Assembly: GCA_903861835.1 (NCBI GenBank)
Contig: CAIOVX010000035.1
Coordinates: 2,220 to 66,219, forward strand
Length of the DNA stretch: 64,000 nt
DNA from: Candidatus Firestoneibacteriota bacterium
GTDB taxonomy: Bacteria; Oederibacteriota; D2-FULL-39-29; CAIOVX01
Direction: 5' to 3'
The translations under genes and the position numbers were made by a program. Positions 12,157 through 31,619 of this stretch are shown here, piece after piece. Position 1 is the stretch's first letter. Every line of letters starts with the position of its first letter. Under the pieces are notes generated by a model. It had not been told where the DNA came from. It ran no database searches and saw only the letters and a program-made list of their open reading frames with translations.

Positions 12157-12168
12157 GGCGGAGGGTAA

Positions 12169-14751: not shown

Positions 14752-14766
14752 TCAGCCACCCGCCTT

Positions 14767-15258
14767 TTAGAAGTAATAAGTTACGCCCAGATTAATTACT
14801 ATGCCGAAATCGCTGATACTGCCGAGATCACTTGAAATGGAAATAAAATAAGGTCCCGCATCAAGGCCGACACCAATGTTCTTTGCGACAAATATTTCAC
14901 CTCCGAAGAAAACCCCGCATTCAAAACCGGAAGTCAAAACATTGGAAAATGGGATTCCTATCTCTATACCTGTATAGGGCTGAAGAGGCGGTTGCCCGCT
15001 AAGCTTCGGCAGGACATAGTAGCCCCTGACAGCGAGCAAAAGGTTGTCCCCGCTGTACTGACCCCGTATTTCAGCCAGGAAATTGCTGCCGACATCCATC
15101 CTGACCTGCGCTCCGGTCCAATTGAAACCCACGCCGATTTTACCTTTGAAAAGATTGGAGTTTAGGGCTTCTTCTTGTTCCAACAGCATAACCTCAGCGG
15201 AAAGGAACAGCGTGAAAGAGAGCAGGAAAACCAGGGAAAGGAATACCTTCTTTGCCAT
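14767..15258 (-). CDS. small outer-membrane beta-barrel protein
   Basis: It has a signal peptide, alternating hydrophobic beta-strand pattern with Gly/aromatic-rich segments, and a C-terminal ...GVTYYF (terminal Phe typical of OMPs). It lies 15 nt upstream of the FN3/propeller gene, so the two probably form an operon. Confidence 0.55.
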   Translation of the reverse strand: MAKKVFLSLVFLLSFTLFLSAEVMLLEQEEALNSNLFKGKIGVGFNWTGAQVRMDVGSNFLAEIRGQYSGDNLLLAVRGYYVLPKLSGQPPLQPYTGIEIGIPFSNVLTSGFECGVFFGGEIFVAKNIGVGLDAGPYFISISSDLGSISDFGIVINLGVTYYF

Positions 15259-15441
15259 TTAATTCTCCCTATAAGGATTTTAGTTAAACAATTATATTCC
15301 TTTCTCTATCCATATGTCAATCGCGGTTTGTCCTCTTTCGTAGTTTAACCCGACTTATCACCAGAAACTCCTACAAGTTAAACTGGCTAATTCGCACAAC
15401 AACGGGTATGATTAACTAAAGAAACTGACCCGGAGGGCGAT

Positions 15442-16926
15442 ATGCATACATCTGTAATGGAACCGGTAAGATACCTGTCATCCGAAGAGATGCAGCGTAT
15501 TCACGAGAACGCCTGCAAGATACTGGAAGAAATTGGCATGAAGATTGATCATCTAAAGTCGCTCGATTACCTGCGCAACGCGGGTTGCAGCGTCGACTTT
15601 GAAAAAAGAACCGTGAAATTCCCAAGACAAATAATAGAAAACGCAGTCGCTAAGATGAAGACCAATTATTCTTGCTCAAAAAGACTTCCCAAGAGAATGT
15701 CTGTCCGCTATTCCCAGGTAGGCTTCGATAAAAAGCCTTTCAAGATTCAAGGTGATTTCTCCGTCTCATCCGGAGGGTTTTGCTGTTTTGTGTTGGGTCT
15801 CGACGGCAAAAGAAGGGCGGCCTCTATTTCCGATGTCAGAGATTCCCTGAAACTTGCCGACAAACTTGATCAGATTACCTACACCGGTCTGCCGGTTGCT
15901 GCGCAAGAAGTGCCGGTGGGAGTCAGAACTGTCGTTATGGCTGCGGAACTCGCAAAGGCCACAAAGAAGTTCGGTGGCATTGAAACCTTTAAGGCTCGCG
16001 ATGTAGAGTACATCTCAAGAATAGGCGAAGTTGTGCAAGGCGGCAAGAAAGGGCTTCAAGAAAGCCCTATCCTCGTCGGTTATGCGGAAGTAAGATCTCC
16101 GCTCTGCCTTGATGAAGTTATGGCGGATGTGCTGATAGCGCATCTGGAAAGAGGCTTGCCGCAGACCATTGAGTCTATGCCTAACGCCGGAGCCACAACG
16201 CCGATGTCTGCCGCCGGAACACTTTCCATGGGAGCTGCCGAAACACTCGGCGGGCTGGTACTCGGTTTTGCCGTAAATCCGGACGCAACAATAGGCGTGG
16301 ATATCAATCCCGGGTACTGCGATATGCGCTCTATGCTCTTCGGTTACGCAGGCGCTGAGAGAGTGCCTTTGCTTTCGGCAAGGATACAACTTATCAGCGA
16401 GTTCTACGGCTGCCCCTCAGGCGTCCACGGCGGCAAGACAAACGCCTGTGTTGCAGGTATTCAGGCAGGGGTTGAGAAGGGTATCTCAATGCTGGCGCCT
16501 GTACTTGCAGGCGCTATAGGGTTTGGAACGGTAGGCCATCTGGAGAACGCCATAACTTTTTCTCCGCTGCAGCTTGTCATTGACAACGAAATTGCCCGCT
16601 ATGTTCGGCGCGCCGTAAAGGGAGTTGAAGTTACTGAGGAAACGCTTGATTTCGAAACCGTAAAAAACTCAGGTATCGGCGGAAATACGGTAAGCAGCGA
16701 AAGCACCATGATGCGTTTTAAAGAAGAGGAACTGCTCTCGCCTTTCTTTGACGCTCTTTCGTGGGGCACGGGCGATTCACTGGAGAGCCGCAGGTTCGAA
16801 AAGCTCGCGGCAGCCAAGGCCGAGGAACTTCTCGCTGCGGAATCAGAATCTCCGCTAAACCGGGAACAAATAAAAGCAATCGACGAAATTGTTGAGGAAG
16901 CTAGAAAAGACCCTCTGATGAAATAG
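15442..16926 (+). CDS. MttB-superfamily (trimethylamine methyltransferase-like) protein, non-pyrrolysine type
   Basis: The N-terminus LSSEEMQRIHENACKILEEIGMKI and the overall length (494 aa) are typical of the MttB family. The frame is uninterrupted, with no in-frame TAG. A GGAGGG SD is present. Confidence 0.8.
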   Translation: MHTSVMEPVRYLSSEEMQRIHENACKILEEIGMKIDHLKSLDYLRNAGCSVDFEKRTVKFPRQIIENAVAKMKTNYSCSKRLPKRMSVRYSQVGFDKKPFKIQGDFSVSSGGFCCFVLGLDGKRRAASISDVRDSLKLADKLDQITYTGLPVAAQEVPVGVRTVVMAAELAKATKKFGGIETFKARDVEYISRIGEVVQGGKKGLQESPILVGYAEVRSPLCLDEVMADVLIAHLERGLPQTIESMPNAGATTPMSAAGTLSMGAAETLGGLVLGFAVNPDATIGVDINPGYCDMRSMLFGYAGAERVPLLSARIQLISEFYGCPSGVHGGKTNACVAGIQAGVEKGISMLAPVLAGAIGFGTVGHLENAITFSPLQLVIDNEIARYVRRAVKGVEVTEETLDFETVKNSGIGGNTVSSESTMMRFKEEELLSPFFDALSWGTGDSLESRRFEKLAAAKAEELLAAESESPLNREQIKAIDEIVEEARKDPLMK

Positions 16927-17101
16927 CTCTTATGACGAAACCTCACGCCGTTTAGTTTTTCTGCAATTTGCGCCTTTATATTTGTTTTTTATCCGATATA
17001 CCTTTCTATTTGTTTTTATCTCAATAAATTCTCCGCTTACTCCTTGAACAGCGTTCTTTATTGATATAAGATATAGTAAGTTTGCGCAGGGAGGGTTCAC
17101 A

Positions 17102-17566
17102 ATGCAGCATTCCAAGGATGAGGTATTAAAACGGCTGAAAGAAAGCCAGGTTGCAGTTATCGCGACCAATGACAACAAGGGCGGACAGATACGGCTTCGC
17201 CTTATGTATTACGGAATTTCAGAAAGGTTTGAGTGCTACTTGATGACTCTCAAAGACAGCCCTAAGCTTACACACCTCGCTGATGCCGGCAAAGTGAGCG
17301 TGCTGGTGCACAGCCTTGAAACTCCTTTTGATCTTTCCTGGGAATGCGAGCTTAATGGTTATGTGAGCGTTATTGATTCCGAGCAAGAACAGGGACGCGC
17401 GCTGCAAGAACTGAAGGGAAGAAATCCTTTTGCCGATGTTGCCCTCGAGGCGGGGCTGACTGCGGAACATTTCGTTTTTCTAAAACTTTCTCCTATGCTG
17501 CTGCGCTTCCGTGTTTACAGCGAGGCTTTAAACGATGAAGCTCCCACGGTAATTGAGTTCAAATGA
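17102..17566 (+). CDS. pyridoxamine 5'-phosphate oxidase-like (FMN-binding split-barrel) family protein
   Basis: The size (154 aa) and pattern (QVAVIATNDNKGGQIRLRLMYY...YLMTLKDSPK...GKVSVLV) resemble the PNPOx-like / general stress protein 26 fold. Its stop overlaps the start of the downstream kinase (ATGA). Confidence 0.45.
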   Translation: MQHSKDEVLKRLKESQVAVIATNDNKGGQIRLRLMYYGISERFECYLMTLKDSPKLTHLADAGKVSVLVHSLETPFDLSWECELNGYVSVIDSEQEQGRALQELKGRNPFADVALEAGLTAEHFVFLKLSPMLLRFRVYSEALNDEAPTVIEFK

Positions 17567-18651
17567 AAACCAATTGCTGGGAAATACTTGATTGTCCGCA
17601 AAAGGAATGTCCTGCGCACGGCGAGCCGAATGAGAAATGCTGGCTGCTGGGTGGAACTTTCTGCAACGATAAGATCAGCGGGTCCTGCATAGAGAAGATG
17701 TCTGCCTGCCTTGACTGCAGGGTTTTTGAGGATAATTTCGATCCGGCCGACTGTCTTCAAACACTCGAGGTCATGTCGGAGCAATTTAGATCTGTCACAA
17801 AGAAACTGCTGGCAGAAAAGGAAGAACTTAACGAGACCCAGAAGAAACTGTCGGAATTTAAAACCACAAGCGTTTATCTCTTAAAGGAACTGGATAAAAA
17901 GAACAGGGAGATAGGCGAGACCGTCAAGAATAGAACGGCTGAACTGAAGGAGGCGGAATCCAGACTCTCACAGGCGGCAAAGGTAGCCGCTCTGAGCAGG
18001 TTCTCCGCCGGCATCGCGCACGAGATAAACAACCCGCTGGGAGCCGTGATCAATTACATAAGAACCGCTCTTTCTGATCCGGAGCTCAAGACAGACGCAA
18101 GAAATTACTTGGAACAAAGCTTAAAGGGCCTGTTTCGAATAGATAATGTAGTTAAACAGATTCTCAGCTATTCCGGGCGGCAGAATCTCGAACCCGTGGA
18201 CATCAATAAATTGCTTTTAGAACTTGCCGAATTCAACAGATTTAGACTTAAAGAGAAATCTGTCAAAGTGACTCTGGAACTCGCACCGGACCTGCCGAGG
18301 ACATACGCCGACCCATCTCAGTTGAGCCAGGTTTTTAACAATATCTTAAAGAATGCGGCTGATGCGATGGAGAAAACAGAAAGAAAGGAGGCTGTGGTCT
18401 CGACTTTTTCTAACAGTGCCGGTATCTTAATCGTTTTCAAGGACAGCGGAGTAGGCATAACGCCTGAGCAAAAAGAAAAACTCTTCACGCCTTTCTTTAC
18501 TACAAAGGAAGTAGGAGAAGGGACAGGCCTCGGTTTGTTTATTAGTTATAATATTATTCAGGTGCTTAGAGGCACACTCGACATCAATAACATTCCGAAA
18601 GGCGGCACGGCCGTCACCATAACCTTGCCGGCATATAAGGAGCTCAAATGA
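17563..18651 (+). CDS. cytoplasmic sensor histidine kinase with a Cys-rich N-terminal domain
   Basis: There are no TM segments. The first 64 aa carry 9 Cys, including two CW motifs (NCWEILDC, KCWLLGGTFC). A coiled coil follows, then the H-box AGIAHEINNPLGAV and HATPase N/G boxes (NILKNAADA, DSGVGI, GTGLGL). Confidence 0.85.
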   Translation: MKTNCWEILDCPQKECPAHGEPNEKCWLLGGTFCNDKISGSCIEKMSACLDCRVFEDNFDPADCLQTLEVMSEQFRSVTKKLLAEKEELNETQKKLSEFKTTSVYLLKELDKKNREIGETVKNRTAELKEAESRLSQAAKVAALSRFSAGIAHEINNPLGAVINYIRTALSDPELKTDARNYLEQSLKGLFRIDNVVKQILSYSGRQNLEPVDINKLLLELAEFNRFRLKEKSVKVTLELAPDLPRTYADPSQLSQVFNNILKNAADAMEKTERKEAVVSTFSNSAGILIVFKDSGVGITPEQKEKLFTPFFTTKEVGEGTGLGLFISYNIIQVLRGTLDINNIPKGGTAVTITLPAYKELK

Positions 18652-19994
18652 CAGAACGCGGTCCGCGGATACTTTTAATAGAAGATGACGACCTTATGCT
18701 CAATATGCTTGAGGATAATCTAGGCAGAGCCGGGTTTTCAACGGCTTCCGCCATTGACGGCATTGAAGGCGTAGACAAATTCAAGAAAAGTGATTTCGAG
18801 TTGGTCATCCTGGACTTAAAATTGCCGAAACTTGACGGAATTTCCGTACTTAAACGCATTAAAGAGGCGGCTCCGGATACCGTATGTATCATTATGACTG
18901 GTTACGGCACGGTAGAAACAGCCGTCCAGGCGATGAAACTTGGCGCTTTCGATTACCTGACTAAACCGTTCCTGGTTGAAGAGATGCTGCTGCTTGTTAA
19001 AAACGGCCTTGAACTGCAGTCCCTCAAAAAAGAAAATATGATACTAAGAAACAGGATTGGCCCTTCCGGCTCGCTCGGAAATATAATAGGAAAGAGCAGG
19101 GTAATGGAAAATGTCTTCAGACTTATAGAGTCCGTCGCCCAATACAACACCACGGTTCTCATTCAAGGGGAAAACGGCACCGGCAAGGAACTGGCCGCGG
19201 AAGCCATACATAAACTCAGCCCGAGAAAAAACGGGCCGCTCATCAAATTAAACTGCAGCGCTTTGCCTGAAGCCCTGCTGGAAAGCGAGCTCTTCGGTCA
19301 TGAGAAAGGCGCTTTTACGGATGCCATCAGAAAAAAAATAGGAAGGTTTGAGCTTGCCGACGGCGGCACAATCTTTCTTGACGACATTGATGATATGAAA
19401 CCTTCGGCTCAGGTTAAATTGCTCAGGGTTCTTCAGCAACGGGAGTTTGAGCGGGTAGGCGGAACCGAGACCATAAAAACAGATGTCAGGGTTATTTCTG
19501 CCACCAAAGCTGACCTTCGGGAAAAAATAAAAGACGGTTCCTTTAGAGAAGATCTTTATTACAGACTGAATGTAGTCCAGGTTAACCTGCCGCCGCTAAG
19601 GGAACGGAGCGGAGATATTCCCTCCCTGGCGTCGCATTTCCTAAAGAAGTTCAATGGCACAACAAAGAAAGAAACTGAACTGGATCCGGCAGTGCTGCTG
19701 GCAATGGGGAGTTATTACTGGCCGGGAAATATACGTGAACTTGAAAACATGATGGAACGCCTAGTAAGCCTTGCGGCAAAGAAAGAGATAACGGTCTCAG
19801 AACTCCCCGCCTATTTTATAGAGAAGACAGCCTGGAAAGAATCCAGCCTTGATTCTGTCGTAAGGAAGGCGGAGAAGGAACACATACTGCTTACTTTAGA
19901 ACACGCCGGCGGCGTAAAGAAGAAGACAGCGGAGATACTTGGAATTTCAGCAAAAACACTCTGGGAAAAGTCCAAAGAATACGGAATAGACTAA
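18648..19994 (+). CDS. sigma-54-dependent response regulator (NtrC family: REC + AAA+ + Fis-type HTH)
   Basis: The REC domain has ILLIEDD...VILDLKLP. The AAA+ domain has Walker A GENGTGKE and the sigma-54 contact loop ESELFGHEKGAFTDA, plus GNIRELEN. The C-terminal HTH is KKKTAEILGISAKTLWEK. It overlaps the kinase stop. Confidence 0.9.
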   Translation: MTERGPRILLIEDDDLMLNMLEDNLGRAGFSTASAIDGIEGVDKFKKSDFELVILDLKLPKLDGISVLKRIKEAAPDTVCIIMTGYGTVETAVQAMKLGAFDYLTKPFLVEEMLLLVKNGLELQSLKKENMILRNRIGPSGSLGNIIGKSRVMENVFRLIESVAQYNTTVLIQGENGTGKELAAEAIHKLSPRKNGPLIKLNCSALPEALLESELFGHEKGAFTDAIRKKIGRFELADGGTIFLDDIDDMKPSAQVKLLRVLQQREFERVGGTETIKTDVRVISATKADLREKIKDGSFREDLYYRLNVVQVNLPPLRERSGDIPSLASHFLKKFNGTTKKETELDPAVLLAMGSYYWPGNIRELENMMERLVSLAAKKEITVSELPAYFIEKTAWKESSLDSVVRKAEKEHILLTLEHAGGVKKKTAEILGISAKTLWEKSKEYGID

Positions 19995-20148
19995 TTTGGC
20001 GTCTTAAGCGCTTTTATTTACACTCTCCCATTAATCACTGCCTTTTGTTATTCCGCGCTTTCATTACATTTTGAGTTAACGTTACCTTTTCGTAATGCCT
20101 CCGGATGCTCTGCCTCAATAAAACCCTTATTTTACAATGCTACTGTTC

Positions 20149-20164
20149 TGGCATGCTTCTTGCT
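20149..20164 (+). promoter_or_regulatory. sigma-54 (-24/-12) promoter
   Basis: The sequence is TGGCAT-GCTTC-TTGCT, against the consensus TGGCAC-N5-TTGCW. It lies 155 nt downstream of the EBP gene stop and 16 nt upstream of a GGAGG SD (20180-20184). Confidence 0.7.
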
Positions 20165-20188
20165 CTAATATTATATGACGGAGGAAAC

Positions 20189-20566
20189 TTGACTGTGCCG
20201 AAACTAAACATAAGGCCTTTTGACCTCGCCTTTTCAATCATTATATTGGCCTTACTTTTTGCCGTTCCTTACTGGTATCAACACAGGGATTCAGGGGTAC
20301 TAAAAGAAGTTAAAGTATTCAAAGAGAATAAACTGATTGCTGTTGGGCCAATTGACGCGGACAGGCTGATAACGGTCGGAAAGATGGAGATAGAGATCAA
20401 GAACGGCAAAGTTAGGGTTTTACACTCTGACTGTCCCAAAGGACTCTGCGTTGGCTTTGGACGGATATCTTCCCCGGGAGAGTCTATTGTATGCGTGGCA
20501 AACAAAGTTTTGGTAGAAGTGTCCGGTAAGACGGGCGACGACGATATCGTTGCAATGAGCTACTAA
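20189..20566 (+). CDS. NusG domain II-containing membrane-anchored protein
   Basis: It has an N-terminal TM anchor (FDLAFSIIILALLFAVPYW) and the NusG_II signature region IEIKNGKVRVLHSDCPKGLCVGFGRISSPGESIVCVANKVLVEV. The start is moved from the ORF-track ATG 20105, which lies upstream of the sigma-54 promoter, to TTG 20189. GTG 20195 is an alternative start. Confidence 0.55.
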   Translation: MTVPKLNIRPFDLAFSIIILALLFAVPYWYQHRDSGVLKEVKVFKENKLIAVGPIDADRLITVGKMEIEIKNGKVRVLHSDCPKGLCVGFGRISSPGESIVCVANKVLVEVSGKTGDDDIVAMSY

Positions 20567-20567
20567 A

Positions 20568-21671
20568 ATGAAAAACGAAAAGAAAATACAGAAAATAGCG
20601 CTGCTCGTCTCCTGCGCATCTGTGCTGCAGGCAGCCGAGTTTTTGGTACCGAGCCCAATTCCCGGCGTAAAACTCGGGCTCGCGAACATAATAACGCTTA
20701 TTGTCCTCGCCGACATGGGCTTCATTCCGGCCCTTGAAATCGCGATTCTCAGAACTGTTGTGAGTTCTCTTTTCCTGGGGACTTTCCTTTCACCTACATT
20801 TATTATGAGCCTGTCCGGCGCGCTCACGAGCACGCTCCTCATGGGCCTGACATTTCGATACCTGGGATTTATCAGCACAAGCGTCTTAGGGTCTGTTGTC
20901 CACGTTCTTACCCAGTTGCTTGTGGTTTACATTCTGATAATACGCCATCCAGGCGTCTTCGTTCTTATGCCTTGGCTCGGAGCAAGCGCGGTGGTAATGG
21001 GCTGGCTCACAGGGGCGGTCGCTATGAATGTATTCGCCAGAATCAAAGAAGGAGGAATTGCCGATACGCTTCCGGAAGCTCAAGGCATAAAAAAGATTAC
21101 GCGCAATGCGGCTTTTTCCGCGCCAGCAATGATAAAGATAATTCTTACGGCAATAATCTGCACTCTTGTCCTTCTGGTCAACGATCTTAGACTTTATGCG
21201 CTTGTGTTCAGTTTACTCCTTGCCGCCTCTTCAATCCTGAAAACGACTGTTTCAGTTATGTTCTCTGGAGTAAAAAGGCTGCGCATGTTCCTTGTTTTCT
21301 CGCTTATTATCCCGGTGCTTTTCAACCGCGGCGGCGCGGAACTATTCTCTTTCTGGCTGCTTAAGGTTACGCAATCAGGGCTCTTGACCGGGTTACTCTT
21401 CGCATTCAGGCTCATTCTTTTAATGATGGCAACAGGCTTGCTTTCCGCTTCAACTCCTGCCGAAGAACTTGCAGGGAGTCTTAAGAAGATTATCGGGGAA
21501 AGGCTTTCCCGAATAGTAATGATTGCCTGGGAAAACATACCTGTATTCTGGGAGAGGTCACGCCTCTATATAAAACAACATAAGTTTGACAGTTCTATAT
21601 TTAAAAAAGCATTGCCGGTTGCGATAAATCTCGTAGCTTTACTCTACGCGGAGACAGAGAAGGCGCGATAA
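20568..21671 (+). CDS. fusion protein: Gx-transporter family (Hpre_diP_synt_I-like, ECF S-component-like) N-half plus EcfT/CbiQ-like C-half
   Basis: The N-half motif PIPGVKLGLANIITLIVLADMGF...LRTVVSSLFLGTFLSPTF is typical of the Gx transporter family. The C-half (from about aa 185) has the EcfT-like pattern LLTGLLFAFRLILLMMATGLLSASTPAEELAGSLKKI. The whole protein has about 10 predicted TM segments. Confidence 0.6.
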   Translation: MKNEKKIQKIALLVSCASVLQAAEFLVPSPIPGVKLGLANIITLIVLADMGFIPALEIAILRTVVSSLFLGTFLSPTFIMSLSGALTSTLLMGLTFRYLGFISTSVLGSVVHVLTQLLVVYILIIRHPGVFVLMPWLGASAVVMGWLTGAVAMNVFARIKEGGIADTLPEAQGIKKITRNAAFSAPAMIKIILTAIICTLVLLVNDLRLYALVFSLLLAASSILKTTVSVMFSGVKRLRMFLVFSLIIPVLFNRGGAELFSFWLLKVTQSGLLTGLLFAFRLILLMMATGLLSASTPAEELAGSLKKIIGERLSRIVMIAWENIPVFWERSRLYIKQHKFDSSIFKKALPVAINLVALLYAETEKAR

Positions 21672-21729
21672 CGGAGGAATCATTTATTCCGCAACACCGC
21701 AAAAAAACGTAAAAAATATAGGAGGCAGG

Positions 21730-23025
21730 ATGAAAAGTAAATTCATAAAGTTAACAATGTGCGCGGCGTTTCTTTCGCTTCTTTCCGCGGTTAACGCGCA
21801 GGAAACCTCGGTTTCCACAAAAAGCGACGCCCAGTCCGGCACAAAGGCAGCGCCATCAGCGCTCAACACCGAGCTCAAGCCCGCGCCGGAAAAAGCAGAA
21901 GCCAAAACTTCCGCAAATTCAGGGAATAGCGGCGGAACAGTAGGAGGGAACTTCAAGTTCTATCTGTATGACAAATCGGAGGGAGTAACCAACGGGTCTG
22001 CTTCAAGCGAGAGAGCTCTTACCGGCATGACCAGTTTCTATATGTTCATAAACAAAGATCTCTCAGAAAACGTTTCCCTCGAAATAGATCCTGAAATATC
22101 AGTAAGCGGAGGTGCAACCCCTAAACTGGGAGCGGCATTTCCGTCTCCGTCAACAAGCCCGACGCTCAGTCTCGGATTACTTAAAGCCCAGATCACCGTA
22201 AAACTCCCGGAAAGTGTGGAACTAACCGCCGGATCTCTGCGCACTCTTTTCACTGAAGATTATGGAAACATGCTCTGGTACGAGGATGAGTTTTTTGGCA
22301 ACTACGCGGTATGCGGGGGATATTACGGAACCCTCGATGATACAGGCATAGAGCTTTACAAGAACTTTGAGCTTGGTCCGGTTTCTCTGCCGTCATATTT
22401 ATATATCCTTGGCGGCGGCATGAACATGCTCGTCAGTAACACCAATTCCAGAGGTTTCCTCGCTCACATTACTCCCGAGATAGGGCCGTTCAAGTTTATG
22501 GGCTCGTATTTCTCGACCATGGACGTTTCCGGCAATAACCCGATTAACAGATATTCTGCCGGCGTTGCGTTTAATTACGACGCGTTTATGTTTAGGTCTG
22601 AGTATATGGGAGGAACCTGGAATAACGTCAAGATGTACGCCAATACTGATATCAATGACGCAACTCAGGTCACGAGAAACCTCACCCCTCACTCATATTA
22701 CATGAAAGCGGGTTACAAGATATTGCCGTGGGTGAGGTTCTTGATGGTATATGCTCACTATGACCAGGATTTCAGCAGTTTACCGAAGTCTGCTGCGGTA
22801 ATTGGCGGCGGAGCGACTGCAGCGGCGAACAAACAATCTTTTGCCTATGAAACATACACTGAACTGTCGCCTATTTTGAACTTCTATGTAACTCCTGATT
22901 CCATTATTTACCTTCAGGTAATAAATGTAGAGAATTCCAGCATAAGCCTTTTGCCAAGCGCTGCTTACAGCACCGCCGAACTGAACTATAACCGGTTGGT
23001 AGTTGGCTGGAGAACAACTTTCTAA
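21730..23025 (+). CDS. porin-like outer-membrane beta-barrel protein
   Basis: It has a signal peptide (AAFLSLLSAVNA/QE) and a low-complexity linker. Amphipathic beta-strands rich in Y/G/N follow, and the C-terminus is LVVGWRTTF (terminal Phe). A GGAGG SD is present. Confidence 0.5.
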   Translation: MKSKFIKLTMCAAFLSLLSAVNAQETSVSTKSDAQSGTKAAPSALNTELKPAPEKAEAKTSANSGNSGGTVGGNFKFYLYDKSEGVTNGSASSERALTGMTSFYMFINKDLSENVSLEIDPEISVSGGATPKLGAAFPSPSTSPTLSLGLLKAQITVKLPESVELTAGSLRTLFTEDYGNMLWYEDEFFGNYAVCGGYYGTLDDTGIELYKNFELGPVSLPSYLYILGGGMNMLVSNTNSRGFLAHITPEIGPFKFMGSYFSTMDVSGNNPINRYSAGVAFNYDAFMFRSEYMGGTWNNVKMYANTDINDATQVTRNLTPHSYYMKAGYKILPWVRFLMVYAHYDQDFSSLPKSAAVIGGGATAAANKQSFAYETYTELSPILNFYVTPDSIIYLQVINVENSSISLLPSAAYSTAELNYNRLVVGWRTTF

Positions 23026-23040
23026 GAGATTGCAAAGGCG

Positions 23041-23064
23041 GGCGGCCGGGTAAAACCGGCCGCC
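23041..23064 (+). promoter_or_regulatory. intercistronic GC-rich hairpin (porin gene to apbE), no T-tract
   Basis: It is a perfect 9-bp stem, GGCGGCCGG (23041-23049) with CCGGCCGCC (23056-23064), and the loop GTAAAA. Confidence 0.4.
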
Positions 23065-23086
23065 TTCCAAACCAAAGAGGCATAAG

Positions 23087-24103
23087 ATGAGGCTGACGGT
23101 AAAGTTACTCAACATAGCGTTCTTTTGCGCGGCTCTTCCGCTGTTCTCATCAACCGGTCCGGACGGTGAGCTGACCAAAAGGACGCGCTACCTGATGGAC
23201 ACCTATTGTTCCGTCCTGGCTCCTGTAAAAGGAGACATGAAGACAGCGGCGGCGCTTGATCTTGCCCTGGACAGAGTCGAGGAGCTTGACAAAAAGTTCA
23301 GCGCTTTCAGGCCCGGCGGACAGGTATATGAGTTTAATAAAAATGGTACTCCGATAACTGATCCGGAGACGCTTGAACTTGTAAAGAGATGCCTTGATAT
23401 GAATGTAAAAAGCGGGGGAGCCTTTGATATCACCGTCACTCCTCTTGTAAGGCTCTGGGGTTTCTACGGAGAACTTCCCAAAAAGCCGAAGATTCCCGGG
23501 AAGGAAGAGATTGCTGCCGCTATGAAACAAATTGGGCCGGGAAGCATCGAATTGAAAGACGGCAGGCTTATCAAACTGCGCGCTTCGGCGGAAATTGACC
23601 TGGGAGCCGGGGCAAAGGCGTATGCAGTAGGCGAAGCTATGAAAAGCCTGAAAGCGTCCGGCGTAAAGAGCGCGATGGTGGACCTTGGAGGCGACCTTTA
23701 CGCAATAGGACTGTACAACGGTAAAGCATGGAAAGCAGGCATAAAAAAACCCCGCGGCGAGGGCGCTCTTGGAATAATCGGAATGACAGACCTTTCAATG
23801 TCGACTTCCGGAGATTACGAGCGATTTTACGAAATTGACGGGAAGCGTTACTGCCATATAATAGATCCGGTAAAAGGCGTTCCCGCTTCGGAACTCATTA
23901 GTGTTGCCATTATTACCCCTGATGCAACGATGGCCAACCTGCTTTCGACTTCGGTCTTCGTGCTTGGAAGGGATAAAGGGCTCAAGCTAATAGAGAAATA
24001 TCCCGGGACTGAAGCTATTATAATACGCGCGAACGGAGAGATTACTCTCACTGAGGGGCTAAAAAAGCTATTTTCTCTAAAAGAGAAAGGAGGAAAGAAA
24101 TGA
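23087..24103 (+). CDS. apbE: FAD:protein FMN transferase (ApbE family), exported
   Basis: It has a signal peptide. ApbE-like blocks are present: MDTYCSVLA (the MGT-type N-terminal block), FDITVTPLVRLWGF, IDLGAGAKAYAVGEA, VDLGGDLYAIG, MSTSGDYERFY and HIIDPVKG. Confidence 0.85.
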   Translation: MRLTVKLLNIAFFCAALPLFSSTGPDGELTKRTRYLMDTYCSVLAPVKGDMKTAAALDLALDRVEELDKKFSAFRPGGQVYEFNKNGTPITDPETLELVKRCLDMNVKSGGAFDITVTPLVRLWGFYGELPKKPKIPGKEEIAAAMKQIGPGSIELKDGRLIKLRASAEIDLGAGAKAYAVGEAMKSLKASGVKSAMVDLGGDLYAIGLYNGKAWKAGIKKPRGEGALGIIGMTDLSMSTSGDYERFYEIDGKRYCHIIDPVKGVPASELISVAIITPDATMANLLSTSVFVLGRDKGLKLIEKYPGTEAIIIRANGEITLTEGLKKLFSLKEKGGKK

Positions 24104-24675
24104 AAAATAGAATGTTTGCACTTGCAATGGGAGTTGTATGTTTTCTTGCGTTAAGCGGCACCTGCCGCGCTGTTGAGCTTTTGACAAGCGACCAGGCTGT
24201 CAAGGAAATGTTTCCTGATGCCGACAAGGTTGACACCGTGAAGAAAACTCTCGATGCCAAACAGCTTGCCGCAATAAAGGAGAAACTTGGAGGCACGCTT
24301 GTTTACAAAGGTTCTGGAAAAGGCAACACCTGGAAACCTGAAACGGAATATACTGTTTACTATGGGGTTAAGGGCGGAGAAAAGACCGGCGTGGCTATAA
24401 TGGAAGAGGAACCGGGCAAGTGGGGACCGGTAAAATATATAGTTCTTCTTGACCCCAAGACTGCCAAAGTAAAAAACATGGCTGTTATGTCCCTCTCGGA
24501 AAAACGCGGGCGCCCTATCTCAACAAAAAACTTCCTTTCCCAGTTCACGGGTAAAGGGGAAGGCGTGTCAATAGGCAAAGGCGTCACCGGTGTTTCCGGC
24601 GCCACAATTTCCTCGGAATGCACCTGTTTTACGGTAAACAAGGTCATAGCTATCTACCAGGAGCTGTCAAAGTAG
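24100..24675 (+). CDS. secreted FMN_bind-domain protein (predicted ApbE flavinylation substrate)
   Basis: It has a signal peptide (VCFLALSGTCRA/VE) and the C-terminal flavinylation-type motif GVTGVSGATISSE (S-G-A-T). It shows an ATGA overlap with apbE. Confidence 0.7.
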   Translation: MKNRMFALAMGVVCFLALSGTCRAVELLTSDQAVKEMFPDADKVDTVKKTLDAKQLAAIKEKLGGTLVYKGSGKGNTWKPETEYTVYYGVKGGEKTGVAIMEEEPGKWGPVKYIVLLDPKTAKVKNMAVMSLSEKRGRPISTKNFLSQFTGKGEGVSIGKGVTGVSGATISSECTCFTVNKVIAIYQELSK

Positions 24676-24682
24676 TTTCCCC

Positions 24683-26050
24683 ATGGAACTCAGAGACGCA
24701 TTTCCGCTAAATATCCCTGCCGGTAACGAGGTCGGTGAACGGAACAAGTGGTTCATCGACCTCCGCTGGCTTGCCGTAATCGGCGTGGCAGGTGTAGTGA
24801 CCTCAGCCGCGGTAATATTCAAAATAACGCTGCCGCTTGGCTACTTATACACCGGAGCAGCGCTGCTTGCAGGATACAACGCAGGCTTTCTGTTTTACTG
24901 GAAACGTCTCGCTTCAAGTCCTAAAGAAGACAATGGAGGGCATAACCTGTTCGCGAATGTGCAGGTCGCCATGGACCTGCTTATACTGACCTACTTTCTG
25001 CATTTCGGCGGGAGCATTGAAAATCCATTTGTTTACTATTTCATATTTCACATGGTCATCGCGGGTATTCTGCTTTCCAACAGGGCAGCCTACGCTCACG
25101 GCGCTTTTGCCGTGTTTTTGATAGGGTCAACTTCTTTCCTTGAATACGCCGGCGTTATTCCCCATTACCATGTGGCAGGATTCCCTGACTCTGAGATGAT
25201 CTACAACTTCAAATACCTCATAGGATCTCTCGGAGTACTTTCTTCAACGCTCTTCATTACCATATTTATGGCGGCCACCGTCGTCAACAAACTGAGAGAC
25301 CGTGAAGAAAAACTTGACGCGGCGAACAAATTGCTTGCGGAGCAGGACAGCCTCAAGTCGCAGTACGTGCTGACGGTTTCCCATGACCTCAAGTCCTCGG
25401 TATCAACTATCCAAAGCTGCCTTAAGGTTGTGCTGAAAGGTCTGACCGGCAGTATTGGGCCTAAATCTGCGGAAATGTTATCCAGAGCGGAGCGCCGCAG
25501 CATTTACATGCTTGACTTCATAAGCGACCTGTTAAATCTTTCAAGCATAAGAGCCGACAGGAACCTGCGAAAAAGTCAAGTATCCATCTCTATGATTGCT
25601 GAACGCATGGTTGACAATTTTGGGCAGCGTTTCACAGCCAAAAAAATCAAGTTTGAGTTTAACGATCTGCTCGAAGAAGCAATTATTTTAGCGAATGAGG
25701 ACTCAATTGAAAGGGTCTTCGTAAACCTTCTGGAAAACGCAGTAAGATATACGCCTTCAGGCGGAAAAATAAGCATGGAATTAAAGAACAAAGACGGTAA
25801 TATAGAGGTAGCAGTAAAAGACACCGGTATAGGAATCGCTGAAGAAGACCAGAAATCACTCTTTAAGGATTTTTACAGGGCAGAGAATGCCCGTATGATT
25901 GAGAAAGACGGTACCGGCCTGGGCCTATCTATTGTAAAACAGATACTTGATTCTCATGAAGGGAAAATATGGCTTGAAAGCAGGCTTGGTCAGGGCAGCA
26001 GGTTCATATTTACGCTGCCTGCCGCAACCGGGTATCCGGGGGAGGTTTAA
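24683..26050 (+). CDS. membrane-embedded sensor histidine kinase (about 6 TM, no large periplasmic domain)
   Basis: It has hydrophobic N-terminal helices, then the H-box LTVSHDLKSS and HATPase boxes (NLLENAVRYT, DTGIGI, GTGLGLSIV). It starts 8 nt after the FMN_bind gene. Confidence 0.85.
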   Translation: MELRDAFPLNIPAGNEVGERNKWFIDLRWLAVIGVAGVVTSAAVIFKITLPLGYLYTGAALLAGYNAGFLFYWKRLASSPKEDNGGHNLFANVQVAMDLLILTYFLHFGGSIENPFVYYFIFHMVIAGILLSNRAAYAHGAFAVFLIGSTSFLEYAGVIPHYHVAGFPDSEMIYNFKYLIGSLGVLSSTLFITIFMAATVVNKLRDREEKLDAANKLLAEQDSLKSQYVLTVSHDLKSSVSTIQSCLKVVLKGLTGSIGPKSAEMLSRAERRSIYMLDFISDLLNLSSIRADRNLRKSQVSISMIAERMVDNFGQRFTAKKIKFEFNDLLEEAIILANEDSIERVFVNLLENAVRYTPSGGKISMELKNKDGNIEVAVKDTGIGIAEEDQKSLFKDFYRAENARMIEKDGTGLGLSIVKQILDSHEGKIWLESRLGQGSRFIFTLPAATGYPGEV

Positions 26051-26054
26051 AGCT

Positions 26055-26561
26055 ATGAAGGAAATTAAGACAGTTTTGCTCGCTGACGATGATATTGACC
26101 TTGTAGAGACCATGAAGATAGTCCTCGAGGCCGAAGGATTCTCCACTATAACCGCTTACGATACTGCCGCGGCCTTCACTAAGCTTAAGACAGAAAAACC
26201 TGATCTAATGGTACTTGATGTTATGTTCGGCCCCGGAGGCAAAACCAACGGACTTGAACTCGTATCTAAGATTCGCCAGGATGCTGCAGTTTCCGGAACT
26301 CTCATACTGATGATAACTTCGGTAAACCTAAAACTGCCCGTATTTGACAGCCTGCCGGATATGGACGGAATGCCGGTGCCGGCTGAAACAGGCAGAGGGA
26401 AAGAGAACGCCGCGGACGAACTCTTTACCCTTGATGTGCCGACTTACCTTCCTGTCGACGGGTTCATCAACAAACCCGCGCAGCCCGAAGAGCTGGTCGC
26501 CAAGGTCAGGGCCCTGCTAGAAAAGAAAGTGAGCAAGTGGGCCGGCTGGAAAAAAAAGTAG
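26055..26561 (+). CDS. stand-alone receiver-domain response regulator with a long internal insertion
   Basis: The start is placed at ATG 26055 (MKEIKTVLLADDD), preceded by a GGAGG SD. The phospho-acceptor context is DLMVLDVMF and the conserved Lys context is FINKP. The ORF-track start 25947 lies inside the upstream kinase gene. Confidence 0.75.
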   Translation: MKEIKTVLLADDDIDLVETMKIVLEAEGFSTITAYDTAAAFTKLKTEKPDLMVLDVMFGPGGKTNGLELVSKIRQDAAVSGTLILMITSVNLKLPVFDSLPDMDGMPVPAETGRGKENAADELFTLDVPTYLPVDGFINKPAQPEELVAKVRALLEKKVSKWAGWKKK

Positions 26562-26609
26562 TTTTAACGCGGTAAATATGGTAATTTATTGAATCCGAAC
26601 GGAGGGTTT

Positions 26610-27083
26610 ATGTCTTTGTACTTTATGCTTGTCGGGCTGCATGTCTTCGGCTTAGATGTAGGTATAGGAACTTGCACCGTGACCTATGTGCTCGGGGCCT
26701 ATGGAATGTTTAACCCGAAAATAATGCCCAAGGCAGTAGCTGTCTTTAAAATACTCTCCTTGCTCATCTGGGCCGGACTTTTCCTGTTGATAACCTCGGG
26801 CGTCGCGCTTTACTTTACGTCTGCGGCGACTTACGGCGACGCGATTAAATCAAAACTCTTTCTCATGAAAATGATTTTTGTCGGACTGCTGACCCTAAAC
26901 GGACTCTTCTTGAATGTAATAGTAAACCCGATGATGGACAAAGCAGTTGCACTTCCAAACTTTGAAAAAACTCCTGAGTACCGAAAAGCGCTAATCTTCG
27001 GCGCAATTGGAGCCGGAATATCCGCGACCTGCTGGTACGGAGCTTTTTCACTTGGCCTCTATATATTCAGACTAATGGTGTAG
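26610..27083 (+). CDS. small integral membrane protein (4 TM), function unknown
   Basis: It has four hydrophobic helices. ATG 26610 is preceded by GGAGGG at 26601-26606, whereas the ORF-track TTG 26589 has no SD. Confidence 0.4.
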   Translation: MSLYFMLVGLHVFGLDVGIGTCTVTYVLGAYGMFNPKIMPKAVAVFKILSLLIWAGLFLLITSGVALYFTSAATYGDAIKSKLFLMKMIFVGLLTLNGLFLNVIVNPMMDKAVALPNFEKTPEYRKALIFGAIGAGISATCWYGAFSLGLYIFRLMV

Positions 27084-27098
27084 AATCCGGCTTTCAGG

Positions 27099-27127
27099 TT
27101 GACACCTGCTCTAAATTCTGTTAAAAA
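27099..27127 (+). promoter_or_regulatory. sigma-70-type promoter (TTGACA - 17 nt - TAAAAA, with TGn extended -10)
   Basis: TTGACA is at 27099-27104 and TAAAAA at 27122-27127, preceded by TGT. The ATG at 27138 follows 10 nt later with no SD. Confidence 0.4.
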
Positions 27128-27137
27128 CAGCACATCC

Positions 27138-29642
27138 ATGACGAAACCATTCCGCGGTTTATTTTTTTCCATATTCCTCGCCCTCCCGTTGTACGCCAGC
27201 CCTGAACCTGTAACACTTAATATGTGGGATGTCCCTGAAGCCTGGAATATTCAAGGCAGAGTTGTCTTCGATGCTTTCGTAAAACTACATCCTGAAATCA
27301 ATATCGTCAGAACAAGAGGCATCTCCGTTACCGGAAACGCTGCCGAGTCAGGCTTTATGATGGCGATGGCCGCGGGAACGGCGCCGGACATATTCGAAGT
27401 GAGCTTCCGGGGGCTAAAGCTCTATATGGATCAGGGCTTCCTTTGCCCTCTTAATGAGTATTACGAGAAGGACAAAAACCTCTTCGCACCTTTCATGCTG
27501 GATAAATTCAAACCAATATATTATGACAGGCGCGGGGGAGATATCTATGGAGTACCCGTAAGTTTCAGCGAAGCCTTTGGATTGTATTACAGGAAAGATC
27601 TTTTCAAGAAAGCGGGGCTGGATCCAGAAAAACCGCCCAGAAACTGGGATGAACTTTATGAATATGCTCAAAAACTCACAGATGACAGCGTGGGCCAGTA
27701 TGGTCTGGGACTTGGCCTCGGAATCTGGGGCGGCTGGCTCTTGCCAAATTTTGTATGGCAGGCGGGCGGAGAGATGGCCCGGGAATATAAAGAGTGTCCT
27801 CTTTGCAAAGAAATCAACAAACAACTTGATGGGAAGTACGACGGCGGCTGGGCAATATACCCTGATAAATGCATAAAGTGCAGCTCTGATATCTCAAAAG
27901 TTGACAAATATGTTTGGAGAGTAACGTTCAACGAGAAACCCGGAATTGAAGCGCTGGAATTTCTTAAAAAGTTCAGGTATGGCAAGTATACGCGCCAAGG
28001 TAAAAGCTATCAGGGTTGCGCGAAAGTCCTTGTTGATTATGACTATGCGATGAAGGAATTCCTTAAAGGAAGCGTCGCCATGATTTTCAGCTACGCCAAC
28101 GGAGATATGATTGCCGCCAATTCAGGATTCTCTCCTTCGGAAGTAGGAATAGCGACCCTGCCTGCCGGCCCTACCGGGATTGAAGCAAATAACATGCAGA
28201 CCATTACCTGGTGCATAAACTCTCAAATCAAAGATAAGAAAAAAAGAGACGCCGCCTGGGAATACATTAAATTCCAGGCGTCAGAAGAAGCCGCAAGACT
28301 CAGAATCAAATCTATCGTTGAATCGGGGCAGGCCCAATATGCCAACCCCGAGCTGCTTAAGAAATTCGGTTATGAAGAATACTGTGAGCAAATACCCGCC
28401 TCATGGGTGCGTTCATATAAGAGGCAGATACAAAACGCGCGTCCGGAGCCTTACGCTACGGGTTATAAATCAGTTGCTACGGTGGTACTCCCGCTGGCGG
28501 TGGACAAAGCCCTAACGGAAGAAGACAGCAACATCCCTTCCGAGCTGGACAAGGTTGTAGAAAAATCAAACAAGGTTCTGCTCGGCGTAAAAGACCCGGT
28601 TGAAATGAATAAGAAGCGCGCCTGGGCCAACGGTATTTTCTTTGTACTGGTCGCGCTTCTCATTTGGCTTATGATAATCGCGGGTAAAAATCTCGTGGGA
28701 ATATTCGCTTCTGACCGGCAAAGAAATATTCATGAAGGACCGGAAGGCCTTAAAGGAAAACACAGAACCACGGCTCTTGCCTGGCTGTTTATGCTGCCCG
28801 CCTTGCTTTCAGTCGCAGTCTGGCAATATTATCCGCTTCTGAATGGCGTCAGGTTGGCCTTCCTTGATTACAAAATAGTAGGCTCCAGCACTTTTATTTG
28901 GCTTGACAATTTCATCGATGTATTTTCGTCTCCGCTTTTCTGGAAATCCATCACGAATACTCTCATTTTTGTTTCACTCACGCTGGGACTTGGTTTTTTC
29001 CTTCCGATAATAGTAGCGCTCGTACTTTCAGAGATACCGAAAGGCAAGGTCTTCTTTCGGACGCTTTTCTACACGCCCGCGCTCACAACTTCGCTTGTGC
29101 TGCTTATCCTCTGGATGAGTTTTTATGATCCGGCGCCTACGGGATTATTAAATATTGTAGTAGGTTTTTTTGGTATCGGCGCGCAAAAATGGCTTCAGGA
29201 TGCTCAGCATCCGATAGTCCCTATGCTCTGCGTTATAATACCGAACATCTGGGCAGGCGCAGGTCCGGGCAGCATCATTTACCTTGCGGCCCTTCAGGGT
29301 ATTCCGGATGACCTTTATGAAGCGGCTGATGTTGACGGGGCCTCAGCCTGGCAGAAAATAAAATTTGTAACTTTGCCGCAGCTCCGGCCGCTGATAATTA
29401 TAAACTTCGTTGGGGCGTTCATCGGCGCTTTCCAGGGAATGGGAAATATCCTGGTAATGACGGGCGGCGGTCCGAGCCACGCGACTCACGTGTTGGGACT
29501 CGAGATTTGGATGGATGCGTTCCTCTTTCTCCGTTTCGGTTATGCAACAGCAATAGCGTGGATTATGGGAATGATGCTCATTGGCTTCACAATTTACCAA
29601 CTGAGAATCCTGAAAAGAGTTACATTTAAAGTCGCAAGATAA
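27138..29642 (+). CDS. fusion protein: family-1 (CUT1-type) extracellular solute-binding protein plus MalF-type ABC permease
   Basis: It has a signal peptide (FFSIFLALPLYA/SPEP) and an SBP_bac_1-like region of about 480 aa (GTAPDIF..., YGVPVSF..GLYYRKDLF...). An extra TM follows (IFFVLVALLIWLMIIAG), then a 6-TM permease with the EAA loop YEAADVDGASAWQKIKFVTLPQLRP. The start is moved from TTG 27099, which is the -35 box, to ATG 27138. Confidence 0.75.
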   Translation: MTKPFRGLFFSIFLALPLYASPEPVTLNMWDVPEAWNIQGRVVFDAFVKLHPEINIVRTRGISVTGNAAESGFMMAMAAGTAPDIFEVSFRGLKLYMDQGFLCPLNEYYEKDKNLFAPFMLDKFKPIYYDRRGGDIYGVPVSFSEAFGLYYRKDLFKKAGLDPEKPPRNWDELYEYAQKLTDDSVGQYGLGLGLGIWGGWLLPNFVWQAGGEMAREYKECPLCKEINKQLDGKYDGGWAIYPDKCIKCSSDISKVDKYVWRVTFNEKPGIEALEFLKKFRYGKYTRQGKSYQGCAKVLVDYDYAMKEFLKGSVAMIFSYANGDMIAANSGFSPSEVGIATLPAGPTGIEANNMQTITWCINSQIKDKKKRDAAWEYIKFQASEEAARLRIKSIVESGQAQYANPELLKKFGYEEYCEQIPASWVRSYKRQIQNARPEPYATGYKSVATVVLPLAVDKALTEEDSNIPSELDKVVEKSNKVLLGVKDPVEMNKKRAWANGIFFVLVALLIWLMIIAGKNLVGIFASDRQRNIHEGPEGLKGKHRTTALAWLFMLPALLSVAVWQYYPLLNGVRLAFLDYKIVGSSTFIWLDNFIDVFSSPLFWKSITNTLIFVSLTLGLGFFLPIIVALVLSEIPKGKVFFRTLFYTPALTTSLVLLILWMSFYDPAPTGLLNIVVGFFGIGAQKWLQDAQHPIVPMLCVIIPNIWAGAGPGSIIYLAALQGIPDDLYEAADVDGASAWQKIKFVTLPQLRPLIIINFVGAFIGAFQGMGNILVMTGGGPSHATHVLGLEIWMDAFLFLRFGYATAIAWIMGMMLIGFTIYQLRILKRVTFKVAR

Positions 29643-29720
29643 TTTGGATGCTCAGAAGCTCGGATAGTCGGATGATTAGACGCGTGTTATGATGCCTGAG
29701 AACTGAGAGAGGGGGATAGA

Positions 29721-30203
29721 ATGCCTATAATAGCAATGGTTGGAAGGAAGAGCCTGAAGAGCAAGCTGTTCTTTGCTCTACTTTATCTTTTCTGCGTCCT
29801 CGGCTCCGTTATTTTTACCTATCCTTTTCTGCTTATGCTCTCAAGTTCCACGACAAACTCCGTAGATTATCAAGACTTCAAGCTGGTGCCAAGGTTCTAT
29901 TTTGACGATGATGCTCTCTACCGCAAGTACCTTAACCTGAAGTATACAGACAGGTACCGCGGCGGAGAGAAGAACATCCTGCCTCTTAACAGCCTGTATA
30001 AGACGGACTACCCGGCATACAAGGATATAACTCCGATTTACCCTGAGGTTTCAGGAGAAGGGGTCAAGGCGCGTCTTACAGACTATGAACATTTCCTCTC
30101 ACAATTAGCTCCTGAGTACTGGACGCGCGGCTTAAATTATTACCTTCTGAAGGACTACAGGTCTGAAGAAAAGATGCGCTTCAAAGATATTGAACATTTA
30201 TAA
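29721..30203 (+). CDS. MalG-type ABC permease, N-terminal fragment (TM1 plus the start of a very large periplasmic loop)
   Basis: The TM1 context LFFALLYLFCVLGSVIFTYPFLLMLSSSTTN is typical of MalG-class permeases. The frame ends at 30203, and the next frame is open from 30151. Confidence 0.55.
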   Translation: MPIIAMVGRKSLKSKLFFALLYLFCVLGSVIFTYPFLLMLSSSTTNSVDYQDFKLVPRFYFDDDALYRKYLNLKYTDRYRGGEKNILPLNSLYKTDYPAYKDITPIYPEVSGEGVKARLTDYEHFLSQLAPEYWTRGLNYYLLKDYRSEEKMRFKDIEHL

Positions 30204-31602: not shown

Positions 31603-31619
31603 GAAGAATCAAATTGGAA

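Follow-up and report, generated by a model that had tools for sequence, protein, structure and literature searches.

We analysed a 64,000-nucleotide stretch of a Candidatus Firestoneibacteriota (Firestonebacteria) genome (GenBank assembly GCA_903861835.1, contig CAIOVX010000035.1; the whole stretch is called the window below), in which ten open reading frames (ORFs) lie on the same strand between positions 17102 and 26561. Their domains were called against Pfam and NCBIfam, and these searches bear out the ten genes and every domain assignment of a preliminary description of this DNA, those of ApbE, FMN_bind, Gx and EcfT included. Three regulatory genes, for a PNPOx-like protein, a histidine kinase and a sigma-54 activator, stand ahead of seven closely spaced genes for an EetA homologue, an EetB::EcfT fusion, a porin, an ApbE flavin transferase, an RnfG-like FMN_bind protein, and a second histidine kinase with a receiver protein. 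We think it probable that this is the Firestonebacteria version of a conserved diderm module for flavin export and flavoprotein electron transfer that includes a porin, and the porin appears to be a part undescribed in the literature. All features given by position below are on the + strand unless otherwise stated.

The operon opens with the genes of a putative flavin exporter. The first (20189 to 20566) encodes an N-terminal transmembrane anchor followed by a NusG_II domain (PF07009, 73 bits), the family that is labelled EetA in Data Set S1 of a study of Listeria (Rivera-Lugo 2023, PMC9973259). The second (20568 to 21671) is an eetB::ecfT fusion, matching PF07456 over amino acids 13 to 153 (116.5 bits) and the CbiQ/EcfT family PF02361 over amino acids 184 to 329 (36.6 bits against a cut-off of 25). 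In the same study, PF07456 is EetB, an energy-coupling factor (ECF) S-like protein that binds flavin adenine dinucleotide (FAD), and EetB is needed together with the ECF-T protein FmnA and the shared ATPases EcfA/A' for export of FAD to FmnB, which is an ApbE enzyme; co-localisation of eetB was counted in 3,328 genomes for eetA and in 2,169 for apbE, and EetB::ECF-T fusion proteins are already published there (PMC9973259). By analogy, the N-terminal half of the fusion would be an ECF-S-like FAD exporter. The ECF-T half matches an EcfT structure (PDB 4hzu_T, E = 4.5e-9) over EcfT residues 23 to 143 only, and is thus truncated; the two parts are fused in all related loci (367 to 483 amino acids), with the Firestonebacteria proteins shorter by a further ~18 amino acids. 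Related loci have no ECF ATPase less than 10 kb away from the module, the sole ATP-binding cassette (ABC) ATPases nearby being Pst fragments with which two Firestonebacteria loci end, and the ABC ATPases of the window are of Pst type only. The inner-membrane flavin conduit proposed earlier therefore holds as a flavin transporter and loses its novelty, being the known set of EetA, EetB and ECF-T. Since these three are joined by ApbE and FMN_bind, the locus matches the flavin branch of the FLEET system (extracellular electron transfer by means of flavins) of Listeria, contrary to the earlier view that it fits no described flavinylation system.

The transferase and its probable substrate are encoded downstream, and both were described correctly as exported proteins, the second with an SGAT flavinylation motif. 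ApbE (23087 to 24103), an FAD:protein flavin mononucleotide (FMN) transferase, covers the whole of PF02424 (256 bits, profile positions 1 to 266 of 266) behind an N-terminal hydrophobic signal read from its translation. The gene that follows (24100 to 24675) encodes a stand-alone RnfG-like FMN_bind protein (PF04205, 28.4 bits against a cut-off of 22), whose profile aligns over its full length with RnfG (PDB 9eri_G, E = 1e-8). It carries the motif VSGATISS, with Thr169 encoded at 24604 to 24606; the residues S166, G167, A168 and T169 are invariant in a five-sequence alignment, and [S/T]GAT, mostly as SGATISS, is present in every relative bar one truncated ORF. Its N-terminal signal peptide looks cleavable, with an AxA-type site. 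A cysteine in this signal peptide was considered as a lipobox and rejected, as it is not kept in the wider set and the AxA pattern of signal peptidase I fits. We also observed that loci L002 and L015, which represent a related Firestonebacteria genome, are ~86% identical in DNA to window positions 20361 to 34106, yet their ApbE and FMN_bind proteins are identical to those of the window, which suggests a mosaic or a recent exchange of part of the operon.

Intergenic gaps across the operon run from -4 to 61 nucleotides and there is no canonical terminator, so eetA (20189) and all genes up to that of the receiver, at the least, are likely to share a single transcript, which probably reaches 27083. 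ATGA overlaps join the PNPOx and kinase genes (17563), the kinase and activator genes (18648), and apbE and the FMN_bind gene (24100). The overlaps behind the translational coupling proposed for the three regulatory genes are present, and of the two ATGA overlaps proposed within the seven-gene operon one is found there, the other two sites belonging to the regulators. A GC-rich stem-loop (23037 to 23068; -28 kcal/mol, z = -2.65) separates the porin gene from apbE. It lacks a U tract, and terminator prediction did not pick it up. Three variants conserve it, the stem being kept in L016 and L017 and absent in L021; it might stabilise the mRNA or attenuate transcription in part.

Between the exporter and apbE lies the gene for a 431-amino-acid protein (21730 to 23025) with no Pfam or NCBIfam match, for which a porin-like character had been proposed. 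It has a signal peptide, a disordered linker (amino acids 24 to 68) and a C-terminal phenylalanine (...WRTTF), and its AlphaFold2 model (pLDDT 74, pTM 0.72) shows a beta-barrel of porin type whose L3-like loop is long and helical; the DSSP string of the model reads as 16 strands. Foldseek matches the model to PorB, Omp32, OprP/O and other general porins (E from 1e-11 to 1e-8). Signal peptide, predicted 16-strand barrel with an L3-like loop and C-terminal aromatic residue are the features of a general porin, and the fold proposed earlier is thus supported. The family is small, with 14 matches by word-indexed search and 81 cluster representatives at E <= 1e-30 among 1.84 billion, and its distant members give weak matches to Porin_O_P or Porin_4. 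In the first alignment of 14 sequences, A129-T130-P131 was the sole run of three invariant residues. Two loop motifs, ATPxLG in L2 and FTxDYGxxLW in L3, are conserved and specific to the family.

Some family members carry additional domains: the porin at L011 (13187 to 14617) has an SLH domain fused at its N-terminus, a layout for attachment to the outer membrane like that of OmpM, and L009, P0138 and P0163 have N-terminal coiled coils. A second GGAT is present at amino acids 360 to 363 of the window's porin (VIGGGATAAANK, 22807 to 22818), in a low-confidence loop and outside the residues conserved in >=95% of the family. The porin was also considered as a paralogue of the OprP-like porin encoded at 1449 to 2675, with which it has no sequence similarity.

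We find that the arrangement recurs widely across several diderm lineages. The porin profile retrieved 41 genome loci, and neighbourhood look-ups added seven further distinct ones, giving 48 loci from Firestonebacteria, Omnitrophota, Elusimicrobia, Latescibacteria and Desulfobacterales, whose six-frame ORFs were annotated with hidden Markov models (HMMs) built from the window and its first relatives. ApbE lies immediately 3' of the porin in 42 of the 43 loci with enough flank, an RnfG-like FMN_bind gene then follows in 37 of 40, and EetA-EetB::EcfT stands upstream of the porin in 33 of 40. The preliminary description had asked whether the order NusG_II, Gx, porin, ApbE, FMN_bind recurs, and these counts answer that it does.

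The surroundings of this core differ by lineage, and the Firestonebacteria window is the minimal form of the module with its own regulators. In the Omnitrophota and Elusimicrobia the order is NqrB-F, UbiA, polyprenyl synthase, EetA, EetB::T, porin, ApbE, FMN_bind, Aq_1264_TM, receiver and kinase, and one such locus (L006) continues into a PsrABC-like molybdoenzyme. Latescibacteria have a sensor, a kinase and a sigma-54 activator, then a multihaem cytochrome, Aq_1264_TM, porin, ApbE, FMN_bind, polyprenyl synthase, kinase, receiver and NqrA-F. Some 20 Desulfobacterales loci begin with a PhnD-like sensor and a HAMP-type sigma-54 activator and continue with two multihaem cytochromes, cytochrome b561, EetA, EetB::T, porin, ApbE, FMN_bind and an MtrC/OmcA-like protein; one to three MtrC/OmcA-like cytochromes are encoded per cluster (Pfam Mtrc-MtrF_II-IV_dom, 175 bits; OmcA-like_N, 49 bits). 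Such clusters occupy 114 to 15195 of L034 and are found likewise in L022, L024, L027, L030, L035, L038, L041, L045, L046, L049, L050, L053 and others, with no MtrB-type barrel within them. No description of either the porin or the Desulfobacterales cluster was found in the searchable literature, subscription-only literature lying outside the search.

The conservation of the porin raises an alternative that we consider unlikely, in which ApbE also places FMN on porin Thr130 (codon 22117 to 22119) before outer-membrane assembly, and the flavinylated porin and the RnfG-like protein make up a flavin relay that works at the outer membrane or spans it. In Desulfobacterales the electrons would go on to MtrC-like cytochromes, and in Firestonebacteria straight to acceptors outside the cell. 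The motif around this residue, ATPxxG, is invariant in 44 of 44 distinct porin sequences, Latescibacteria porins have a canonical TGAT, and Desulfobacterales clusters with MtrC-like cytochromes at their end encode no outer-membrane protein other than the porin. The NqrB of related loci carries DAVT[A/T]ATPL, with the same xATP core without the glycine, where the known flavinylation site of NqrB lies. Published work shows that a Gly-to-Ala change in the ApbE motif keeps ~50% of flavinylation (PMC12052999) and offers a precedent for a large insoluble ApbE substrate in DUF3570, a protein of ~420 amino acids (Meheust 2021, PMC8238504). Against this, only a minority of the porins have a canonical [S/T]GA[S/T], with G, S, A or E as the residue before the alanine, and position -6 lacks an aspartate. 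Additionally, the model places the motif in the loop between strands 3 and 4, which is probably the extracellular L2. It would there be distant from any partner in the periplasm, except where L2 is folded into the pore, and the conservation of L2 could just as well reflect a role in latching the trimer or lining the pore. The adjacency of ApbE is already accounted for by the FMN_bind substrate in essentially every locus, the porin does not match Pfam DUF3570, and among longer family members there is no fusion to FMN_bind or ApbE, the extensions being coiled coil, DUF302 or SLH. If flavinylation did occur, the porin and the RnfG-like protein would bring electrons to the cell surface without haem, as an analogue, built on flavin, of porin-cytochrome conduits, and one shared by at least five taxa.

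The same genes could also be read as a system for flavin acquisition. Flavins from outside would enter through the porin, ApbE would work on FAD as a pyrophosphatase of the Ftp type, the flavin would be bound by the FMN_bind protein, and its import would fall to EetB::EcfT. Import is the classical role of ECF transporters, the porin is kin to anion- and phosphate-selective porins, and the Treponema pallidum ApbE/Ftp is reported to hydrolyse periplasmic FAD (PMC4767422). However, Listeria EetB is strictly an exporter and does not substitute for RibU in uptake (PMC9973259), and the near-invariant [S/T]GAT indicates covalent flavinylation over transient binding. The neighbouring genes are those of respiration or extracellular electron transfer and not of vitamin salvage, and no Rfam family, the FMN riboswitch included, was found in 15000 to 28000 at E <= 1. 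We therefore regard acquisition as improbable, and favour export.

The genes ahead of the operon suggest how it is switched on. The first encodes a PNPOx-like split-barrel protein (17102 to 17566; PF01243 PNPOx_N, 34.5 bits against a cut-off of 28.1) and stands upstream of the kinase gene in every Firestonebacteria variant. The kinase (17563 to 18651) is soluble, with HisKA and HATPase_c domains behind a Cys-rich N-terminal two-CW domain (two_CW_domain NF045718, 37.8 bits against a cut-off of 35), and is presumed to be the sensor for the activator, an NtrC-type sigma-54 enhancer-binding response regulator (18648 to 19994; Sigma54_activat 240.7, Response_reg 92.5 and HTH_8 46.2 bits). The locus would give a clean example of a circuit of sigma-54 activator and two-CW kinase governing cofactor export.

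A predicted -24/-12 promoter (TGGCATgcttcTTGCT, 20149 to 20164) lies 155 nucleotides past the activator's stop codon, as the preliminary description had it, and is conserved. The pattern match alone is at chance level, with 4 sites (<=1 mismatch) in the window against 3.5 expected, and we accept the promoter because it is conserved amid diverged intergenic DNA, not because of window statistics. Three other Firestonebacteria variants (L002, L016 and L017) are 76 to 86% identical in DNA overall, with column identity down to 66% in the intergenic region, and all three have the perfect consensus TGGCAC-N5-TTGCT. Across the four variants compared, only this promoter, a palindrome with a CATTAC half-site and a GGAGG are conserved in the intergenic region. 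The palindrome (GTTAC-N6-GTAAT, 20081 to 20096) and the half-site (20062 to 20067) make up a candidate activator-binding site at 20062 to 20096, ~53 nucleotides upstream of the -24 element, which we infer from sequence to bind the activator; its 18-mer is unique in the window. With a conserved promoter, an adjacent activator gene and a conserved candidate palindrome, the proposal of a tight same-strand operon behind a sigma-54 activator and its promoter is supported.

The promoter falls inside the mechanical ORF that begins at ATG 20105, and we therefore revise the predicted start of the NusG_II gene to TTG 20189. This codon lies four bases past the GGAGG (20180 to 20184), aligns with a GTG in a relative and fits gene calls of 125 amino acids. 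Whether the synteny is always linked to sigma-54 had been left as a question: linkage is frequent, being seen in Firestonebacteria, several Desulfobacterales and one Latescibacteria locus, and is not universal. Sigma-54-type promoters follow HAMP-type activators in at least five Desulfobacterales loci. No sigma-54 promoter was found directly 5' of eetA outside Firestonebacteria, where eetA is internal to longer operons.

The second regulatory pair, at the 3' end of the operon, is of a different kind. It consists of a membrane histidine kinase with a PilS-like input domain of six transmembrane segments by Pfam (24683 to 26050) and a response regulator of 168 amino acids (26055 to 26561) in which Response_reg is the sole domain found. 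Orthologues of the kinase score 400 to 770 bits with our HMM in L006, L013, L014, L018, L026, L031 and L047, receiver partners in other phyla are likewise receiver only (130 to 144 amino acids), and the pair is kept within the module in Firestonebacteria, Elusimicrobia, Omnitrophota and Latescibacteria loci. A second two-component system for feed-forward control of transcription, as proposed earlier, is unsupported, because the regulator has no output domain; the pair is instead a conserved part of the module.

This pair allows a further reading, in which the six-transmembrane kinase takes its periplasmic input from the flavinylated RnfG-like protein. The module would then signal the redox state of the periplasm or the cell exterior through the receiver-only regulator, in place of carrying electron flux for respiration. 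The kinase has only its PilS-like membrane domain and no periplasmic domain, the regulator has no DNA-binding output, and in the loci examined from Firestonebacteria, Elusimicrobia, Omnitrophota and Latescibacteria the pair lies a few genes from FMN_bind, coming directly after it in Firestonebacteria and L014. What makes redox sensing a doubtful account of the module is that ~20 Desulfobacterales loci keep EetA-EetB::T-porin-ApbE-FMN_bind without the kinase pair and carry cytochromes instead. Moreover, a sensor has no obvious need for a dedicated porin and FAD exporter, and embedding in Nqr/quinone loci points to electron flux.

An eighth gene (26610 to 27083) encodes a 157-amino-acid protein with four transmembrane segments, which is co-conserved in all Firestonebacteria variants and in Firestonebacteria only, and has no Pfam match above cut-off (CopD at 15 bits is sub-threshold). 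In Omnitrophota, Elusimicrobia and Latescibacteria, precomputed annotations place Aq_1264_TM (PF27139), a membrane protein of 150 amino acids, beside the porin, ApbE and FMN_bind genes (L008, 12911 to 13363; L011, 12373 to 12828; L013, 6706 to 7158; also L018, L023, L026, L031 and L047). In Desulfobacterales cytochrome b561 stands in its place, as the unrelated 157-amino-acid protein does in the window; this last protein was tried as a divergent form of Aq_1264_TM and rejected (hhalign probability 0.1). Aq_1264_TM may be the missing inner-membrane electron-transfer partner.

Bringing these observations together, we propose a mechanism for the export and electron-transfer module. The two-CW kinase, perhaps with the PNPOx-like protein, would phosphorylate the NtrC-type activator, which would bind the palindrome at 20081 to 20096 and open the promoter at 20149 to 20164, both of them conserved sites. 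EetB::EcfT, with EetA and ECF ATPases encoded elsewhere, would export FAD to the periplasm, as homology to Listeria EetB and FmnA suggests, and ApbE would move FMN from FAD onto Thr169 of the secreted RnfG-like protein, consistent with homology and with the invariant motif. The flavoprotein could then serve as a one-flavin periplasmic carrier from an inner-membrane donor, not encoded here, to the outer membrane. At the outer membrane the porin would take over, most likely as a channel for anionic flavin nucleotides or other small redox shuttles, a role to which its kinship with the anion-selective PorB, Omp32 and OprP/O and its conserved loops point. The six-transmembrane kinase and its receiver-only regulator may be accessory parts that the module had ancestrally, with an output other than transcription.

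Several points weigh against this interpretation. The whole 64-kb window contains no Rnf, Nqr, quinone-synthesis, cytochrome, ECF-ATPase or electron-donor gene, nor one for a membrane protein of electron transfer, which leaves electron flow in this organism a putative element of the model. The direction of transport is taken from a distant homologue, and with a truncated ECF-T the coupling to ATPases may differ from that in Listeria. The hairpin at 23037 to 23068 could partly uncouple apbE and the genes downstream of it, and all loci derive from uncultured organisms. The preliminary description called the module self-contained, which is doubtful given that the window lacks a donor and that relatives embed the module in respiratory loci; since in those relatives it sits in Nqr/quinone or cytochrome loci, we regard it as a recurrent component of electron-transfer loci of the envelope.

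Flavin-based extracellular electron transfer was defined in Gram-positive bacteria. FLEET-type genes have been reported in diderm candidate phyla (PMC11323493, PMC12057145), where an outer-membrane component is mentioned in neither report, and none of the metagenome surveys of diderm FLEET says how the outer membrane is crossed. The locus described here and its ~47 relatives reveal a porin family almost inseparable from ApbE and an RnfG-like flavoprotein, encoded between genes for inner-membrane electron input and, in Desulfobacterales, for MtrC-like surface cytochromes. Thus, we propose this porin as a specific candidate, open to testing, for the means by which flavin-based extracellular electron transfer passes the outer membrane of diderms.

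Elsewhere the window carries an MttB-family gene, genes for a sugar ABC transporter, housekeeping genes and two operons for Pst phosphate transport. These Pst-type phosphate ABC operons stand in tandem at 1449 to 12837 (PBP_like_2, two permeases and ATPases), the first of them preceded by the OprP-like porin gene at 1449 to 2675 (Porin_O_P, 29.5 bits), and the same region encodes three full PhoU proteins, a short PhoU-domain protein (7170 to 7640, 156 amino acids) and a low-molecular-weight phosphatase. On the - strand, 12895 to 15258 encodes a 618-amino-acid secreted protein with fn3-like repeats and then a 163-amino-acid signal-peptide protein without a family match, both divergent from the MttB-family methyltransferase gene at 15442 to 16926. 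This methyltransferase and a formate-tetrahydrofolate ligase (46055 to 47773, 870 bits) fit an anaerobic one-carbon or methylated-amine metabolism in this Firestonebacteria genome.

The FLEET locus of Listeria (EetA, EetB, FmnA, FmnB and PplA) is reportedly owed to Light 2018. As described for Listeria monocytogenes (PMC9973259), it has in common with the module the families NusG_II/EetA, PF07456/EetB, ECF-T/FmnA and ApbE/FmnB and an FMN_bind acceptor with SGAT. ECF ATPase genes are absent from the cluster here too, EcfA/EcfA' of Listeria being encoded away from its eet cluster, and UbiA and polyprenyl synthase of the Elusimicrobia and Omnitrophota relatives parallel DmkA and DmkB. In contrast to Listeria, the host here is a diderm, EetB and ECF-T are fused with the T half truncated, and the 64-kb window has no Ndh2 or DmkA/DmkB genes. 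The acceptor is a single-domain RnfG-like secreted protein, whereas Listeria PplA is a two-domain lipoprotein. Additionally, a porin is inserted between exporter and ApbE, control is predicted to be by sigma-54, and a kinase/receiver pair lies inside the operon.

The FMN_bind protein resembles RnfG and NqrC in its full-length alignment to RnfG and in keeping the flavinylated threonine motif, but it scores only 47, 28 and 22 bits with the NCBIfam RnfG models against cut-offs of 205, 230 and 102, and has a cleavable-looking signal peptide in place of a membrane anchor. Unlike Rnf and Na+-NQR loci, the window is without RnfA-E and NqrA-F. Porin-cytochrome conduits (MtrCAB, Pcc and OetABI) similarly encode an outer-membrane barrel with a periplasmic redox protein, and the Desulfobacterales relatives add to this an MtrC/OmcA-like surface cytochrome and an inner-membrane cytochrome b. 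The periplasmic partner here is, however, a one-flavin protein and not a multihaem cytochrome. The MtrB barrel has 26 strands, whereas the predicted 16-strand barrel would be too narrow to enclose a protein. The Desulfobacterales cluster was also considered as the published OetABI conduit and set apart from it, as the Oet paper mentions neither ApbE nor FMN.

DUF3570, which is flavinylated by ApbE (PMC8238504), is of similar size to the porin, adjoins ApbE and has a conserved motif containing threonine. The porin differs from it in having no Pfam match to PF12094, in having one degenerate xATP motif instead of two canonical [S/T]GA[S/T] motifs, and in its neighbours, which are EetAB and FMN_bind here and DsbD, thioredoxin and DUF4266 for DUF3570. 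PorB, Omp32 and OprP/OprO are its best structural matches, distant members match Porin_O_P, and some members share an N-terminal coiled coil or SLH domain with trimeric porins. The family is set apart from these anion-selective porins by its own L2 and L3 loop motifs, ATPxLG and FTxDYGxxLW.

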